DNA of 37,588 nucleotides from a virus (lineage: Duplodnaviria > Heunggongvirae > Uroviricota > Caudoviricetes): the IMG/VR virus record IMGVR_UViG_2563366827_000004, positions 1-37,588 of that record. One strand, given 5' to 3'. Made by a program: the position numbers and the translations under genes. Positions 1,884 through 30,404 of this stretch are shown piece after piece. The notes under the pieces are model-generated. The model did no database searches. It saw only the letters and a list, made by a program, of their open reading frames with translations, and was not told the DNA's origin. The first letter of the stretch is position 1. The number at the start of each line of letters is the position of its first letter.

Positions 1884-3731
1884 TTAAAAAAACTCTTTTC
1901 CTGTTGTAAACATGCCTTCGGGAAGACGCGCACCGTTAACTGAAGAAAATATAGGACCATAATATTGCTTGTTATAGCTTTGTTGAAATGAAATATATCC
2001 ACCACCATATCCGTTATCTGACATATTTACTTGCGAAAAATAACAATTAATTGTTGACGCATCAATATCTCTAAACTGCTGCATGAATCCGCATTGGCCA
2101 ACAACAACATCACCATCATCTTCTTTTTTTGTTAAAATAGGAAGGTGAATCCAGTTAAAATTCCTTGCGCTCGTAGCCATATGTGTATACACGCGCTCGC
2201 AAATAATATCATCACCAGATGTTTTATTTATTGCATAATTTGTCACGTTTGCTCCATCGCCAAATATAGTTTCAGCAACATAGCTATATGTAGATGACGA
2301 AACTGTAAGCGTTGATGCTGTATGTAGTGTTACATGCCTTGATAAGAGCAATTTAGGAGCATAACCAGAATCAAGGTTAAAGGATGCATTTTCTGTCCTC
2401 AACCTTTGAAGAAAATCACTATGACCACCATGGTATGTACCGAAGAACTTTCCAGTTGATAATTCTTTTGCAGCAAACTCTGTTGCTCCATTCCCACCGA
2501 AGTAATATGAAGGCCCCCCATTCACAAAAGGAGTTATTGTTGCTATAAAATTGTCATAATCTAGTAATTCACAACATCCAAGGCTAAAAACGTTTAGCCC
2601 AACGAGATTTGCAGGTTGAAGCGTTGTCGTATCTGTATTTTCAACTTTAAGATACCAAGTTCCTCCAAGTCCATTTATTTCAATATCAATAGGAAGTGGT
2701 GGCTGACCACCTGGTAATATTTTTGTGTCAACGATCTTTTGCGTTGTCCAGTCAGTGTTGTTTCTGCTTATTGATATTGTTACTGACTTACTTGATGCAT
2801 TAGAGCATGCAAGTCTGACATGCGCTATGCTATTTGTTAACATATATGTTACATAAGCGTTTGTGGAAATTGAATAAACTTGAGGTGTGTTAAGGGTGAA
2901 ATCACCTTGTTCTGTTTCCGCGTGTATAGCGTCATCTGTTTTAGAAAAGCCATACAATGTACTTATTTGAGATTCAGTAAATGAAGATAGGGAGACGCCA
3001 GTGTCACTTTTTGTATGTGGTGATAATTTTGCGATAACTGCATCACTTACCATATATACACTTCCAGGCCTAAAAGGTGATGCCCCGCCATAGTTATTCG
3101 AGTCTGATGGTGAAACCTCATTTGTTACTCTATGAGAAATATATTTTCCTTTCCCATGACATCTTTTACTTATAATATAAAAGTCATTAGAATTTTCATC
3201 TTTGACTATTGCTTTTATGTGTGTTGTTATTGTAGGTGATGTTGGGGGGATGATTGATGTCACAAAGTTAACATCTATAGATTTTCGCACATTAATAAAT
3301 TCATCATCTATACTAGTAATTTTATCTTTTAACGTTCCATCTTCATATCCAATATTTTCAGTCCCATCAGGACCTGCGAGAGACTTTGATAGTTGATCCG
3401 GGTCATACTTCAGAACATTCGGAAAATAGAACTGCTGCGCACCATACGCATCATAAACAGCCATAGAGTGGCCTTGCACGGTTACAAACTTGGCAATCTG
3501 TCCGTTATATACCGGATATCCAGAAGCGTTAATGATGATTGGTTGCGAAACAGGAACGTGAGAACCGTCTTCATTTTCCACATAAACCTGAATCTGGTTT
3601 TCATGATTTACCGGGTCAGTGTCAATTTTACCGATATAAATTTTACCATTAGCTACGGCTTTAAAAGAACGAGCCATAGTGAAGAGTTGCGAAGGCATTC
3701 CTATAACCACATTTGGTGTTATATTAGTCAT
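1884..3731 (-). CDS. Tailspike protein with P22 gp9-like N-terminal head-binding domain and divergent receptor-binding body
   Basis: From the internal Met at 3731 the first ~110 aa (MTNITPNVV...RSFKAVANGKIYIGKIDTDPVN...VQGHSMAVYDA...VLKYDPDQ) closely match the recalled P22 tailspike N-terminus. GGA RBS upstream. The rest does not resemble P22. Confidence 0.85.
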   Translation of the reverse strand: MTNITPNVVIGMPSQLFTMARSFKAVANGKIYIGKIDTDPVNHENQIQVYVENEDGSHVPVSQPIIINASGYPVYNGQIAKFVTVQGHSMAVYDAYGAQQFYFPNVLKYDPDQLSKSLAGPDGTENIGYEDGTLKDKITSIDDEFINVRKSIDVNFVTSIIPPTSPTITTHIKAIVKDENSNDFYIISKRCHGKGKYISHRVTNEVSPSDSNNYGGASPFRPGSVYMVSDAVIAKLSPHTKSDTGVSLSSFTESQISTLYGFSKTDDAIHAETEQGDFTLNTPQVYSISTNAYVTYMLTNSIAHVRLACSNASSKSVTISISRNNTDWTTQKIVDTKILPGGQPPLPIDIEINGLGGTWYLKVENTDTTTLQPANLVGLNVFSLGCCELLDYDNFIATITPFVNGGPSYYFGGNGATEFAAKELSTGKFFGTYHGGHSDFLQRLRTENASFNLDSGYAPKLLLSRHVTLHTASTLTVSSSTYSYVAETIFGDGANVTNYAINKTSGDDIICERVYTHMATSARNFNWIHLPILTKKEDDGDVVVGQCGFMQQFRDIDASTINCYFSQVNMSDNGYGGGYISFQQSYNKQYYGPIFSSVNGARLPEGMFTTGKEFF

Positions 3732-27295: not shown

Positions 27296-27589
27296 TTAAA
27301 ATTCCATTTGTATTTGATCAGAACGCTCGGTTGCCGCCGGGCGTTTTTTATTGGTGAGAATCGAAGCAACTTGTCGTGCCAATCGAGCCATGTCGTCGTC
27401 GACAACACCCCATTCAAGAACAGCAAGCAGCATTGAGAACTTTGGAATCCAGTCCCTCTTCCACCTGCTGATCTGCGACTTATCAACGCCCACAGCTTCC
27501 GCTGTCTTCTCAGTTCCAAGCATTGCGATTTTGTTAAGCAACGCACTCTCGATTCTTAGAGCCTCGTTGCGTTTGTTTGCACGAACCAT
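27296..27589 (-). CDS. cII: Transcriptional activator CII
   Basis: 97 aa from MVRANKRNEALRIESALLNKIAMLGTEKTAEAVGVDKSQISRWKRDWIPKFSMLLAVLEWGV..., near-identical to recalled lambda CII. Confidence 0.95.
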   Translation of the reverse strand: MVRANKRNEALRIESALLNKIAMLGTEKTAEAVGVDKSQISRWKRDWIPKFSMLLAVLEWGVVDDDMARLARQVASILTNKKRPAATERSDQIQMEF

Positions 27590-27647: not shown

Positions 27648-27691
27648 TCCCGCATTTCGGCGGGAATGAGGACCATGACTGTTAAAGAGCG
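27648..27691 (-). promoter_or_regulatory. nutR (boxA CGCTCTTTAACA and boxB hairpin)
   Basis: Minus-strand boxA is a perfect consensus, followed by a 6-bp stem hairpin UCCCGC-CGAAAU-GCGGGA, between cro and cII. Confidence 0.7.
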
Positions 27692-27697
27692 GTGTTA

Positions 27698-27892
27698 CTA
27701 TTTGTTTTTCTTGTTGCTTGGGAAAGGACGAACTTCCTCTCCAATCACACTGCCATCAGGCTTTACCGTAACCATAATGTTACGGCCTGCCAGAATGGCC
27801 TTGCTGATAGCGCACTGGATTACACCAAAGTCACTGGCTGCTTTAGCCTGTCCATGGATTTTGGCGTAATCGGCAAGTGTCATTCGAATCAT
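27698..27892 (-). CDS. cro: Cro repressor
   Basis: [62 protein letters not shown] aligns with recalled lambda Cro; ATG 27892 sits 6 nt after GGAGA. Confidence 0.9.
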
Positions 27893-27921: not shown

Positions 27922-27992
27922 AGAATACTACAGGTATTCAAAGCAATCAATACTTAGGGTATTTTTAGTTTAAGTACCTTAGCTATTAGAAT
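27922..27992. promoter_or_regulatory. OR operator region with divergent pR and pRM
   Basis: Palindromic sites AATACTACAGGTATT (27924-27938), AATACTTAGGGTATT (27949-27963) and a degenerate third (about 27972-27987). Minus-strand pR: -35 TTGATT, 17 bp, -10 TATTCT. cI ATG has no SD, so probably leaderless from pRM. Confidence 0.65.
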
Positions 27993-27998
27993 TAAGCT

Positions 27999-28715
27999 AT
28001 GGAAAATAAAAAATCACTGACGACAGAACAGCTGGAAGACGCTAAGCGGCTTAAGGCTTTGTATGAGTCAAAAAAGAAAGAATTGGGAATAACCCAATAC
28101 TCAATCGCTGATGAACTGGGTATCACCCAAGGAGCGGTAGGGCATTATCTTAATGGCAGAAATGCGCTAAACGTTGAGGTTGCATCTGGTTTTGCACGAT
28201 TGTTGCAAGTCTCAATTGCTGATTTTAGCCAGTCAATTGCTGCCAAGGTTGCAGAACAGGCAGAAAGCCTTAAGAGCGATGCCAACGTAAGGTATGCAGG
28301 GGAATACAGAGCAGGAAAGAGGTATCCGGTGTTAAGCAGTATCCAGGCTGGCTCGTGGTGTGAAGCATGCGAACCATACACCATTAAAGACATAGATGTT
28401 TGGCTTGAGTCTGACGCGCATATTCAAGGTAATGCGTTCTGGCTTAAAGTGGAAGGTGATTCAATGACGGCACCGGTTGGGTTAAGCATTCCAGAGGGAA
28501 CATTCGTTCTTTTCGATACCGGAAGGGAGGCGATCAACGGCAGCTTGGTCATAGCAAAACTTTCTGACTCTAACGAAGCAACATTCAAGAAGCTGATAAT
28601 CGACGGCGGAAATAAATACCTCAAGGGACTTAATCCTGCATGGCCTCTCGTGCCAATCAATGGAAACTGCAAGATTATAGGCGTTGCAATTGAGACAAAA
28701 CTCAGACTGGTTTGA
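27999..28715 (+). CDS. cI: CI repressor (lambda-CI-like, LexA-type autocleaving C-terminal domain)
   Basis: 238 aa; aligns with recalled lambda CI along its length (TQEQLEDA.RLKA.YE.KK.ELG...FWL.VEG.SMTAP...FTFKKLI.D) but the HTH recognition-helix region differs. Confidence 0.9.
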   Translation: MENKKSLTTEQLEDAKRLKALYESKKKELGITQYSIADELGITQGAVGHYLNGRNALNVEVASGFARLLQVSIADFSQSIAAKVAEQAESLKSDANVRYAGEYRAGKRYPVLSSIQAGSWCEACEPYTIKDIDVWLESDAHIQGNAFWLKVEGDSMTAPVGLSIPEGTFVLFDTGREAINGSLVIAKLSDSNEATFKKLIIDGGNKYLKGLNPAWPLVPINGNCKIIGVAIETKLRLV

Positions 28716-28733
28716 TCACGCAAGGGGGCGCTT

Positions 28734-29102
28734 ATGGTTGGAACCGCTATAGCAAGCTTTTTTGGGATGTTGGCAATCTCGACAATTTACGGCTTAGCGC
28801 ATGCTTTTATTGCGAAATCTCTATCAGAAAAAATAAGCCAGGCTTGGGCGCATAGATCAGCTCGTTTCATGATTCTGGTGATCATAGCAATACAAGGGAT
28901 ATCTGCATTTATCCTCTATGGATCAAGCTTATACCTATTGTATCAAGGCGCGACATTTACGCCTTACACCAGTGATTACGGAACTCTATACGATGGTAGT
29001 GAAGACATCACTGTGGCTTGGATCGTCTTTGGTTTATCTATGGCCGTGTCTGTTGTAGCAGACATCATTAAGGTAATTCTCGTCTTAACCTTCGCTGACT
29101 AA
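28734..29102 (+). CDS. Hypothetical 3-TM membrane protein, rexAB-position gene
   Basis: 122 aa; AGGGGG RBS 5 nt upstream; starts 18 bp after the cI stop; three hydrophobic segments (about aa 2-27, 45-70, 92-120). Confidence 0.7.
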   Translation: MVGTAIASFFGMLAISTIYGLAHAFIAKSLSEKISQAWAHRSARFMILVIIAIQGISAFILYGSSLYLLYQGATFTPYTSDYGTLYDGSEDITVAWIVFGLSMAVSVVADIIKVILVLTFAD

Positions 29103-29233
29103 CCTATAATCCCGGCAGCAATAGCTATCGGGATCCACTTCACATATCCCGCATAAAAAGCACTGAACAAGCAGACACCGAAAAAATAAATATCCTTTGT
29201 ATTCATTTGCTTATCATTATTTCATCAAAAATA

Positions 29234-29275
29234 AATACCTTGGGTATTTACACAATAAAATACCTACAGTATTCT
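29234..29275 (+). promoter_or_regulatory. OL operators and pL promoter
   Basis: AATACCTTGGGTATT (29234-29248) and AATACCTACAGTATT (29259-29273), same palindrome family as OR; -35 TTTACA (29247-29252), 17 bp, -10 TATTCT (29270-29275). Confidence 0.6.
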
Positions 29276-29321: not shown

Positions 29322-29362
29322 GCTCTTTAACATTGATGGGATTGTCCCGCCGAAATGCGGGA
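29322..29362 (+). promoter_or_regulatory. nutL (boxA GCTCTTTAACA and boxB hairpin)
   Basis: boxB TCCCGC-CGAAAT-GCGGGA is identical to the nutR boxB. Confidence 0.7.
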
Positions 29363-29469: not shown

Positions 29470-29769
29470 ATGACAGTAGTCATTACATATCTGGCTGACG
29501 ATAACGCCAGAAATCGCCGCAGAGCACGCAGACAGGCTCAACGTGAACAGGCGATGCAAGAACAGCGACTGGCGCGAAAAATTGCGCTAAAGCTCTCTGG
29601 TTGCGTCAGAGCGGATAAAGCAGCATCACTCGGAATCCTTCGCTGCAAGAAGGCAGATGAAGTCGAGAGTAAACAGAATCGTATTTACTACCGCAAGCCA
29701 CGCAGTGAAATGGGTGTGACTTGTGTTGGTCGCCAGAAAATGAAATTAGGCAGCAAACCACTTATTTGA
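29470..29769 (+). CDS. N: N-like antitermination protein
   Basis: 99 aa, first gene after pL/nutL, GGAGG RBS, N-terminal arginine-rich motif DNARNRRRARRQAQREQ. Confidence 0.7.
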   Translation: MTVVITYLADDNARNRRRARRQAQREQAMQEQRLARKIALKLSGCVRADKAASLGILRCKKADEVESKQNRIYYRKPRSEMGVTCVGRQKMKLGSKPLI

Positions 29770-29780
29770 GAGGAATTAAT

Positions 29781-30404
29781 ATGTCATCAATCCGCTTAAC
29801 TACGAGAATGAAAGAGGAAATCGCTCGTAACGCTTTAATTAAGTCTGGGGTTTTCACTGAACTTGAAGAAGTAACAAAGTTAAAGAACCAGCTTGCACTT
29901 GACGCCAGAGTTATTGCGTTTGGCGGTAAAAAGAAAACTGAGGAAGTGGATCGGTTATCATCCAAGTTAGCAGCTATAAGTGAAGAACTTGAGAAGATGG
30001 GATGTTCATTTTACTCATGCGATGTTCGTTCTGCTTCGATTTATCTGACTGTATCTGGAAGAAGGGTTGGCTGGCATTCATACGGAAAAGACGGCAACGG
30101 TGAAGATATATTGCTCCCCACCCCAGAAAAAGATAAATGCATGTTTGACGCAGAACACGAAATAACAAAAAGGTTTGATGAAATCTGCGCATTGCAACAA
30201 AAACTTGAAGCCAAGAAAAAGGATATCGAATCAAATGTATGGGCTGCTTTGAACTCAGTCACAACAGTTAAGCGACTTATTGAAGTTTGGCCTGAAAGCA
30301 AAGAATTGCTACCAAAAGAAGCAGATAAAGCAAGTACAGCACTTCCTGCTTTACGGGTAGAAGATTTGAATAAGATGATTGGACTTCCTTCCGAGGCCGC
30401 ATAG
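29781..30404 (+). CDS. Hypothetical 207-aa protein co-transcribed with N
   Basis: ATG at 29781 with GAGAGGAA RBS, 12 bp after the N stop; soluble, no recognised motif. Confidence 0.7.
   Translation: MSSIRLTTRMKEEIARNALIKSGVFTELEEVTKLKNQLALDARVIAFGGKKKTEEVDRLSSKLAAISEELEKMGCSFYSCDVRSASIYLTVSGRRVGWHSYGKDGNGEDILLPTPEKDKCMFDAEHEITKRFDEICALQQKLEAKKKDIESNVWAALNSVTTVKRLIEVWPESKELLPKEADKASTALPALRVEDLNKMIGLPSEAA

Follow-up and report, generated by a model that had tools for sequence, protein, structure and literature searches.

We analyzed a window of 37,588 nucleotides (37.6 kb, the whole stretch of viral DNA presented here), in which the cI and cro genes lie divergently on either side of a 106-bp spacer. 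The cI gene (27999..28715, plus strand) encodes a repressor of 238 aa with an N-terminal HTH domain (Pfam HTH_3, E-value 8e-10) and a C-terminal S24 autopeptidase domain (Peptidase_S24, E-value 5e-24); the protein shares 43% identity with lambda CI across 233 aa. In that alignment, the cleavage residues of the repressor are Ala117-Gly118, Ser155 and Lys197 (A111-G112, S149 and K192 in lambda), and the QAG, GDSM and FKK motifs are conserved, predicting self-cleavage. The cro gene (27698..27892, minus strand) has a GGAG Shine-Dalgarno sequence 7 nt before its ATG at 27892 and encodes a protein of 64 aa that matches the Pfam Cro profile (PF09048, E-value 3.6e-26; 91.4 bits for a cutoff of 32.7) over profile positions 1-59 of 59, which places it in the lambda Cro fold family; it shares 63% identity with lambda Cro across 60 aa. 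The closest solved structures for both proteins are those of lambda, with lambda Cro structures as the top PDB matches. A preliminary description of this DNA had stated that CI and Cro align with their lambda counterparts over most of their length but differ in their recognition helices, and the alignments agree on both counts. Helix 3 of CI reads QGAVGHYLNGRN for QSGVGALFNGIN in lambda (Gly for Ser45, Ala for Gly46 and His for Ala49), and the Cro recognition helix reads QCAISKAIL for QSAINKAIH (Cys for Ser28, Ser for Asn31 and Leu for His35).

On the cro side, nutR (27648..27690, minus strand) comprises boxA GCTCTTTAAC (27681-27690) and the boxB hairpin TCCCGCCGAAATGCGGGA (27648-27665), as in the HK620 record, and is followed by the gene for the lysogeny-establishment activator cII (27296..27574, minus strand; Pfam Phage_CII, E-value 1.1e-47), with the same start as in HK620. 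On the cI side, a hydrophobic ORF of 122 aa (28734..29102, plus strand; phrog_6534), annotated as hkaS in HK620, is co-oriented with cI in the place of lambda rexAB. We considered and set aside a defence role for this ORF, which had no PADLOC match and belongs to a PHROG family without assigned function. Further on come nutL (29322..29362, plus strand; annotated in HK620), whose boxA and boxB are identical in sequence to those of nutR, and a 99-aa ORF for the N antiterminator (29470..29769, plus strand; phrog_271 N-like, E-value 2.9e-36, with a weak Pfam N_peptide match) that has an arginine-rich N-terminus.

An exact search of the window for AATACNNNNNGTATT returned four copies, two in the cro-cI spacer (OR1, 27924-27938; OR2, 27949-27963) and two upstream of N (OL2, 29234-29248; OL1, 29259-29273). 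Outside the cro-cI spacer and the region upstream of N, the same search found no exact copy in the 37.6 kb. Dinucleotide shuffles of the window contained 0.02 exact copies on average, and none of 100 shuffles reached four. This 15-bp palindrome, AATAC-N5-GTATT, is the core of a 17-bp site with the family half-site (T/a)1 A2 A3 T4 A5 C6 Y7. A mismatch search within 27922-29275 yielded two degenerate copies, at 27973-27987 (2 mismatches) and 29189-29203 (1 mismatch). The preliminary description, which had called for a genome-wide motif search, had rightly counted four clean copies, all at OR and OL, but had listed a single degenerate one. We then scored the window with a matrix built solely from the sites of three phages of other genera, themselves chosen with the same pattern; the six best scores were, in order, OL2 (21.5), OL1, OR2, OR1 (18.7), OR3 (15.2) and the site at 29189. 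Another one-mismatch match, at the 3' end of cII (27300-27314), was treated as chance: it scored 10.6, less than the average maximum of the shuffles (12.6), and by our own estimate about one such match per window is expected by chance.

The three rightward sites, at 27924, 27949 and 27973, are overlapped by the hexamers of pR and of a candidate pRM. OR1 (AATACTACAGGTATT, 27924..27938 within the 17-bp site 27923-27939) is an exact match that the HK620 record also labels OR1. The pR promoter (27922..27950, minus strand) has a -35 TTGATT (27950-27945), a 17-bp spacer and a -10 TATTCT (27927-27922) that overlaps OR1 by 4 bp. It was placed by hand and from the HK620 annotation, being absent from our promoter-scan list because it matches the sigma-70 consensus at 8 of 12 positions (threshold 9). 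OR2 (AATACTTAGGGTATT, 27949..27963; exact, also in the HK620 record) has its centre 25 bp from that of OR1; it overlaps the -35 of pR and lies directly against the -35 of the candidate pRM (27964..27992, plus strand; -35 TTTAGT, 17-bp spacer, -10 TAGAAT). The HK620 annotation lists no pRM; a TAnAAT -10 is conserved at the same position in Hafnia, Serratia, Erwinia and Fostie phages. The cI ATG lies 7 nt past this -10, so that the cI mRNA would be leaderless, as it is in lambda. OR3 (AGTACCTTAGCTATT, 27973..27987; OR3 in the HK620 record) lies 24 bp from OR2, centre to centre; it overlaps the spacer of pRM and just reaches the -10, and a weakened third site at this offset is found in nearly all relatives.

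A second operator cluster lies upstream of nutL and N, where the sites at 29234 and 29259 overlap a TTTACA-17-TATTCT promoter. This is pL (29247..29275, plus strand), which matches 9 of 12 positions in the promoter scan, is annotated in HK620 and is conserved in relatives. OL2 (AATACCTTGGGTATT, 29234..29248) overlaps its -35, and OL1 (AATACCTACAGTATT, 29259..29273), centred 25 bp away, is overlapped by 4 bp by its -10 (29270-29275); both are exact matches present in the HK620 record. The -10 hexamer TATTCT thus stands over the promoter-proximal operator at pR and pL alike, as the preliminary description had it.

The whole region is 98.9-99.3% identical in DNA sequence to those of HK620, mEpX2, HK630 and HK140 over cro-OR-cI-hkaS-OL-nutL. 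Phage HK620 was reportedly published by Clark et al. in 2001. Its public record (GenBank AF335538 / NC_002730) annotates OR1-3, OL1-2, pR, pL and nutL/R at the corresponding coordinates, most of these sites having been marked since 2001. Between the two phages, CI is identical at 237 of 238 positions (the one change, A66T in HK620, lies outside helix 3) and Cro at 64 of 64, and at OR1, OR2, OL1 and OL2 all ten specified bases agree; neither OR3 nor the site at 29189 shows any change. OR2 has a T where HK620 and five other homoimmune phages have a C; this sole difference falls in the unspecified centre, as do both of the differences seen at the sites examined in homoimmune phages. The preliminary description had seen here a distinct operator family: the operators are indeed unlike those of lambda, but the family is not new, since the HK620 region is 99% identical and its operators are annotated in AF335538. 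Since its CI and Cro recognition helices and its specified operator bases are those of HK620, the prophage belongs by sequence to the HK620 homoimmune group. The rest of it is a mosaic unlike HK620, with virion genes closest to those of E212, IME10 and CUS-3 and with other genes after N. HK620-type immunity regions also occur in mEpX2, HK630, HK140, HZ41, HF4s, phi296/phi367, 611R6 and two Stx2c phages, and 146 of 5,426 complete E. coli genomes (about 2.7%) carry the module. We found no binding, footprinting or cross-immunity experiment on the HK620 immunity type in the searchable literature, and the identification of the OR and OL palindromes as operators is suggested by annotation and by comparison among relatives.

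The palindromes, to which the preliminary description had tied the immunity specificity and whose absence from related regions it would have counted as a refutation, are present at the same offsets in the homologous immunity regions of four phages of other genera and in the genome loci with the same CI helix. In Hafnia, Serratia and Erwinia phages, whose CI N-terminal domains are 68-84% identical to this one and carry the same helix, the spacer has diverged, yet three sites are kept at the same spacing. Among genome loci, all 25 with a CI helix of the form [ST]QG[AG][VI][GA]HY (from 24 species, Lonsdalea britannica contributing two and each of the others one) carry at least two palindromes, compared with none of the 47 loci with clearly different helices; these are raw counts irrespective of shared ancestry, with 8 loci of related helices left out. 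In 23 of the 25, at least two sites stand at the -200/-176/-152 offsets. The same-helix loci with sites span at least 14 genera, and in an unbiased enumeration of inverted repeats in the spacers of 22 species, AATAC-N5-GTATT came first, occurring in 20. The sites therefore appear to track the CI recognition helix across genera and to be gone where the helix clearly differs, which supports a function for them.

The gene order is that of lambda, with divergent cI and cro genes around a tripartite OR and an OL overlapping pL upstream of N, and lambda likewise has 17-bp operators with an odd central base, a CI made of HTH and S24 domains, a Cro of the same fold family, an OR2 abutting the pRM -35 and a cI ATG 7 nt past the pRM -10. 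Operator centres are spaced by 25 and 24 bp here and by 24 and 23 bp in lambda; with one small membrane ORF instead of rexA and rexB, the distance between OL and OR comes to about 1.3 kb, compared with some 2.4 kb in lambda. Half-site bases A2, A5, C6 and C7 are shared, whereas positions 3-4 are T-C in lambda and A-T here. The combination of an xAATACY half-site, where imm-lambda has TATCACCGC-type operators, and of a QGAVGHYLN helix, where lambda has QSGVGALFN, suggests that the prophage is heteroimmune to lambda. A second comparison is offered by Escherichia phage Fostie, which has a CI N-terminal domain 68% identical to this one, a lambda-like Cro, an OR with the same three-part geometry and a pRM whose -10 is in the same place. 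Its helices (QSAVGHY in CI, QIAISK in Cro) and its sites (AGTAC-N5-GTACT type) differ. Since Fostie departs at the second helix residue and at half-site position 3, the two changes go together; Fostie is a sister specificity to the HK620 type.

Our candidate for OL3 and the site so labelled in HK620 differ, which leaves the position of OL3 uncertain. The candidate, AATATCCTTTGTATT at 29189..29203, is centred 45 bp from OL2 (20 bp in lambda), a distance that exceeds the usual spacing by about two helical turns and thereby keeps the site on the same helix face. In the HK620 record, "tIMM" occupies 3084-3114 of its stretch (window 29183-29213) and OL3 is placed at 3111-3127 (about 29210-29226), so the palindrome at 29189-29203 could instead be the stem of tIMM, the terminator of the immunity transcript, with OL3 at the labelled position. 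The third OL site of the Hafnia phage does align with that position, and the 29189 element keeps its left part (AAATAAAT) even where OL3 lies elsewhere, so that this part may have another role. Judged by visual inspection, the labelled stretch nevertheless matches the pattern poorly, and it is absent from the listed top matrix scores, whereas the 29189 site, with its single mismatch, is identical in six homoimmune phages, and a site at the same 45-bp offset recurs in Serratia, Tatumella and Kluyvera loci with diverged central bases. As a terminator, the palindrome would have a stem of just 4 A/T base pairs and would lack a U-run; the scan for terminators found nothing at 29189, and in RNA folding its bases pair with distant flanks and its own hairpin does not form. 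Folding of 29095-29225 gave one good hairpin, at 29109-29134 just past the hkaS stop, also lacking a U-run. We likewise discarded intrinsic termination as a role for the palindromes in general, as the scan had no match at OR or OL and its two listed matches are on the minus strand elsewhere. We therefore regard the tIMM reading as possible but doubtful, and favour 29189-29203, tentatively, as the best OL3 candidate from sequence; a correction of the OL3/tIMM annotation of HK620 is probable. Related switches show three alternative placements of OL3, at 21, 29-30 and 45 bp. We would give even odds to the joint claim that OL3 of the HK620 type is mis-assigned, the real one being 29189-29203, and that QGAVGHY and AATAC form a recognition pair conserved from E. 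coli to Microbulbifer, sometimes with a Cro of a different family.

A further alternative is that CI and Cro read different determinants, the palindrome being the CI site and Cro recognizing mainly flanks or centre, in which case the palindrome pattern would only partly define immunity. Lambda CI and Cro do rank the three OR sites differently, Microbulbifer loci keep the CI helix and the sites but have a Cro that belongs to another family, and the Erwinia-type Cro, whose sites are unchanged, has Thr at helix position H2, where Cys stands here. An "evolutionary code" for Cro is said to derive from Hall, Lefevre & Cordes in 2005 and Hall et al. in 2011. It couples Gln at H1 to A at +2, Ala at H3 to A at +5 and Lys at H6 to C at +6 (PMC6649833). 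It leaves out positions 3-4, those that separate the HK620 type from lambda. The Cro encoded here has Gln, Ala and Lys at these helix positions, which predict the A2, A5 and C6 of the palindrome, and cro and cI of this type are transmitted along with the sites in each of the 16 phage records with query coverage of 80% or more and in the 146 E. coli genomes, making separate determinants improbable. That the palindromes arose by chance in the A+T-rich operator regions, or bind another factor (a host nucleoid protein, N or CII), can be dismissed given four exact copies for 0.02 expected and none elsewhere in the window, their ranking by a matrix from relatives only, their placement over the -10 and -35 elements of pR and pL, just as lambda has it, their association with the CI helix over at least 14 genera, and the location of the CII site (TTGC-N6-TTGC type) and nut sites elsewhere.

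Divergent cI and cro genes, three OR sites over pR and pRM, an HTH and S24 repressor and an OL over pL together make up the sequence hallmarks of a lambdoid switch, and we conclude with a probability of about 0.9 that the region is the immunity region of a mosaic, P22-like lambdoid prophage and that its immunity type is that of HK620. In the model that we infer, which extends to CI and Cro binding, affinity order, cooperativity, pRM activation and induction, CI dimers would bind the 17-bp (T/a)AATACY-N3-RGTATT(A/t), shutting pR from OR1 and OR2 and pL from OL1 and OL2. CI on OR2, next to the weak pRM -35, would be expected to activate pRM, which would produce a leaderless cI-hkaS transcript; the weakened OR3 would permit negative autoregulation, and Cro would be expected to shut pRM there. 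Published co-crystal work reportedly shows Gln44, Ser45 and Asn55 of lambda CI in contact with operator bases. Specificity would be set apart from that of lambda solely at half-site positions 3-4 (T-C to A-T). The CI encoded here keeps the equivalents of Gln44 and Asn55 and has Gly in place of Ser45, and Cro keeps Gln H1, Ala H3 and Lys H6 and has Cys in place of Ser H2 and Ser in place of Asn H5.

The HK620-type switch found here is already known, and as a textbook lambda-type switch with a specificity annotated in 2001 it adds little scientifically. Two modest by-products are a clean natural case of helix-operator co-variation, relative to lambda (positions 3-4) and to Fostie (position 3), and the probable fix to the OL3 and tIMM annotation. 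For the biology of the prophage, the retained S24 cleavage site and Ser/Lys dyad of CI indicate that SOS/RecA-stimulated self-cleavage should induce it, and from its helix and half-site it should exclude HK620, HK630, HK140, mEpX2 and other phages with the same module, including some Stx2c-converting phages, but not lambda, 434, 21 or P22.

The window's immunity region, at 27922-29275, is of the HK620 immunity type, which has already been described, and its switch is of the textbook kind. Between 27600 and 29500 the sequence aligns over its full length, at 98.9-99.3% identity, with mEpX2, HK620, HK630, HK140, HZ41, HF4s, phi296 and phi367, with almost as full a match to 611R6 and two Stx2c-converting phages. 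CI and Cro are identical to the HK620 proteins at 237 of 238 and 64 of 64 residues. The HK620 record (AF335538; Clark et al. 2001) annotates cro, pR, OR1, OR2, OR3, cI, hkaS, tIMM, OL3, OL2, pL, OL1, nutL, nutR and N, and its OR1-3 and OL1-2 operator sites are the palindromes found in the window. Six homoimmune phages carry all specified operator bases as in the window, the two site differences observed both falling in the unspecified centre. At an identity of at least 95%, the module is present in 146 of 5,426 complete E. coli genomes; the remainder of the window is a P22-like mosaic (HK620, CUS-3, IME10, E212-type). A search of the accessible literature for biochemical or cross-immunity studies of HK620-type immunity returned none.

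The region is bounded by two -10 hexamers, of a leftward-reading promoter at its left end and a rightward-reading one at its right. Using Pfam profiles, we assigned cI (27999-28715, +; HTH_3 and Peptidase_S24), cro (27698-27892, -; lambda Cro family PF09048, 91 bits, cutoff 33), cII (Phage_CII; left of cI, the next gene after cro) and N (29470-29769, +; a weak N_peptide match, with PHROGs concurring on N). Directly downstream of cI, in the place of rexA/rexB in lambda, a hydrophobic ORF of 122 amino acids (28734-29102, +; hkaS in HK620; PHROG 6534, of unknown function) travels with the immunity module. It gave no match in PADLOC and could encode a prophage-expressed exclusion or membrane protein. 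A stable hairpin, ATCCCGGCAGCAATAGCTATCGGGAT (29109-29134, +), lies 7 nt past its stop codon with no U-run following, and could either mark where the immunity transcript really ends or stabilise that transcript. The nutR (27648-27690, -) and nutL (29322-29362, +) sites share the boxA GCTCTTTAAC and an identical boxB, TCCCGCCGAAATGCGGGA, a hairpin with a 5-bp G+C stem and a 6-nt loop; in Hafnia phage Pocitis76 the place upstream of N where nutL would be expected has an annotated tRNA-Gly gene (locus L004, 3923-4002). The product of the first gene after N (29781-30404, +) is an Nmad5 protein (nucleotide modification associated domain 5; Pfam, E 6e-71) for which PADLOC gave no match, and the position of this gene is filled by other genes in HK620 and mEpX2.

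The window's 37,588 bases contain four exact copies of the palindrome AATACNNNNNGTATT, at 27924, 27949, 29234 and 29259, for a chance expectation of 0.02 in shuffled sequences (0/100 shuffles reached four). With a relaxed pattern, two degenerate local sites were found, AGTACCTTAGCTATT at 27973 (two mismatches) and AATATCCTTTGTATT at 29189 (one mismatch), so that of the four clean copies and one degenerate copy in the preliminary description the former stand and the latter becomes two. A further one-mismatch copy, AATTCCATTTGTATT, at the 3' end of cII (27300-27314) is probably non-functional, because by our own arithmetic about one such match per window is expected by chance. The promoter scan called pL at 29247-29275 (TTTACA, 17 bp, TATTCT). 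On the other strand, pR has its -10 TATTCT at 27927-27922 and TTGATT 17 bp upstream; its 8 of 12 consensus matches place it slightly below the scanner's threshold. The shared -10 hexamer previously noted is correct. At both promoters its first four bases belong to the promoter-proximal palindrome, and the -35 is overlapped by the second. A candidate pRM (27964-27992; TTTAGT, 17 bp, TAGAAT) abuts OR2, and TAnAAT is kept at its -10 position in four diverged relatives. The candidate promoter ends 7 nt ahead of the cI ATG, so that the cI mRNA, like that of lambda, would have no leader.

Among solved structures, those of lambda CI and lambda Cro come closest. The alignment to lambda over most of the length of both proteins, as first described, extends over 233 residues for CI (43% identity) and 60 for Cro (63%), and the Ala-Gly cleavage site and the S24 Ser and Lys of lambda CI align with those of the window's CI. 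The recognition helices differ, as had been proposed: QGAVGHYLNGRN against QSGVGALFNGIN in lambda CI, and QCAISKAIL against QSAINKAIH in lambda Cro. Nor are the operators lambda's, since the half-site x-A-A-T-A-C-Y agrees with the T-A-T-C-A-C-C of the 17-bp lambda site at positions 2, 5, 6 and 7 and differs at positions 3-4; the centres of neighbouring operators are separated by 25 and 24 bp, compared with 24 and 23 bp in lambda. In the lambda CI co-crystal, base pairs 2, 4 and 6 are read by Gln44, Ser45 and Asn55, respectively. The window's CI keeps the equivalents of Gln44 and Asn55 and has Gly for Ser45, which fits an operator change limited to positions 3-4. For Cro, a published "evolutionary code" matches residues to half-site bases: Gln H1 to A+2, Ala H3 to A+5 and Lys H6 to C+6 (PMC6649833). 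All three residues are kept in the window's Cro, and all three bases in the half-site.

Hafnia, Serratia and Erwinia phages encode CI N-terminal domains 68-84% identical to the window's, with the same helix 3. Their cro-cI spacers are diverged, yet each holds three AATAC-N5-GTATT-like sites at unchanged spacing, with two or three further sites upstream of N. A matrix built only from the 18 sites of these phages ranked OL2, OL1, OR2, OR1, OR3 and the 29189 site, in that order, as the top six in the window. A scan of one genome per species yielded 80 CI-related loci. The palindromes were not absent from homologous immunity regions: beyond these distant phages, all 25 loci with the helix [ST]QG[AG][VI][GA]HY had at least two sites with at most one mismatch, against 0/47 loci with clearly different helices (Fisher P 7e-20, uncorrected for shared ancestry; 8 related-helix loci left out). 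For 23 of these loci, two or three of the sites fall at about -200, -176 and -152 bp relative to the helix codon. The 25 loci span at least 14 genera, among them Lelliottia, Siccibacter, Enterobacter, Tatumella, Lonsdalea, Serratia, Pantoea, Providencia, Proteus, Yersinia, Pectobacterium, Scandinavium, Kluyvera and the distant Microbulbifer. In an unbiased enumeration of every exact 5-Nn-5 inverted repeat across spacers from 22 species, AATAC-N5-GTATT ranked first (20/22 species). The information profile gives the half-site (T/a)1 A2 A3 T4 A5 C6 Y7, positions 8-9 carrying no information. The distinct operator family seen in the preliminary description is confirmed as an observation, and its interpretation as the determinant of immunity specificity is supported.

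Variants of this specificity were also observed. Escherichia phage Fostie (locus L007, 2420-2500 and 3290-3340) represents a sister type, with the helices QSAVGHY in CI and QIAISK in Cro and sites of the AGTAC-N5-GTACT type; its record has no cro annotation, and an annotated opposite-strand ORF covers cro. In two Microbulbifer loci (L070, L073), CI is just 43-45% identical overall with helix 3 and the AATAC-N5-GTATT sites unchanged, and the divergent upstream gene encodes, in place of a lambda-type Cro, another small HTH protein, whose helix is TQG(M/L)VSAW; in a third (L072) the upstream ORF picked by the script is doubtful. Seven loci (L029, L030, L032, L033, L038, L040, L071) form a second CI N-terminal class (helix TKGAVSHW/TQGAVAHW) with TATAC-N5-GTATT-like sites upstream and, in most, two sites 25 bp apart downstream, which may be a related specificity.

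In the HK620 record (AF335538), OL3 corresponds to about 29210-29226 of the window, and the equivalent of 29183-29213 is labelled as the terminator tIMM. As a terminator, the 29189 palindrome has neither a G+C stem nor a U-run; the terminator scan detected none at 29189, and RNA folding did not form the palindrome's own hairpin. The record's OL3 sequence is by eye a poor match to the pattern and was not among the top scores listed by the matrix scan. The 29189 site is unchanged in the six homoimmune phages, and Serratia, Tatumella and Kluyvera likewise have a site 45 bp from OL2, differing in its central bases; in other lineages, OL3 lies 21 bp or 29-30 bp from OL2. The 45-bp offset exceeds the 25-bp OL1-OL2 spacing by 20 bp, about two helical turns, and the site therefore lies on the same helix face. 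However, AAATAAAT, which forms the left part of the element, is kept even in loci with OL3 elsewhere. On balance, the chances that the palindrome at 29189-29203, not the record's OL3, is the true OL3 of the HK620 type are even or slightly better.

A third site with one half-site weakened recurs in nearly all relatives. This systematic weakening of OR3 (27973-27987 in the window; around -152 relative to the CI helix codon in loci L004-L006 and L012-L039) nearly always alters one half-site at position 6 or 3 (AATAG, AATAA, AATAT, ATTAC), the altered half varying by lineage. Standard lambda logic is the best-supported reading of the switch, from which we infer operator binding, cooperativity, pRM activation and induction. 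Dimers of CI on OR1/OR2 and OL1/OL2 would occlude pR and pL, and CI at OR2 would activate the weak pRM. The weakened OR3 would provide negative autoregulation and is where Cro would be expected to act on pRM, and prophage induction would proceed through RecA-stimulated self-cleavage of CI.
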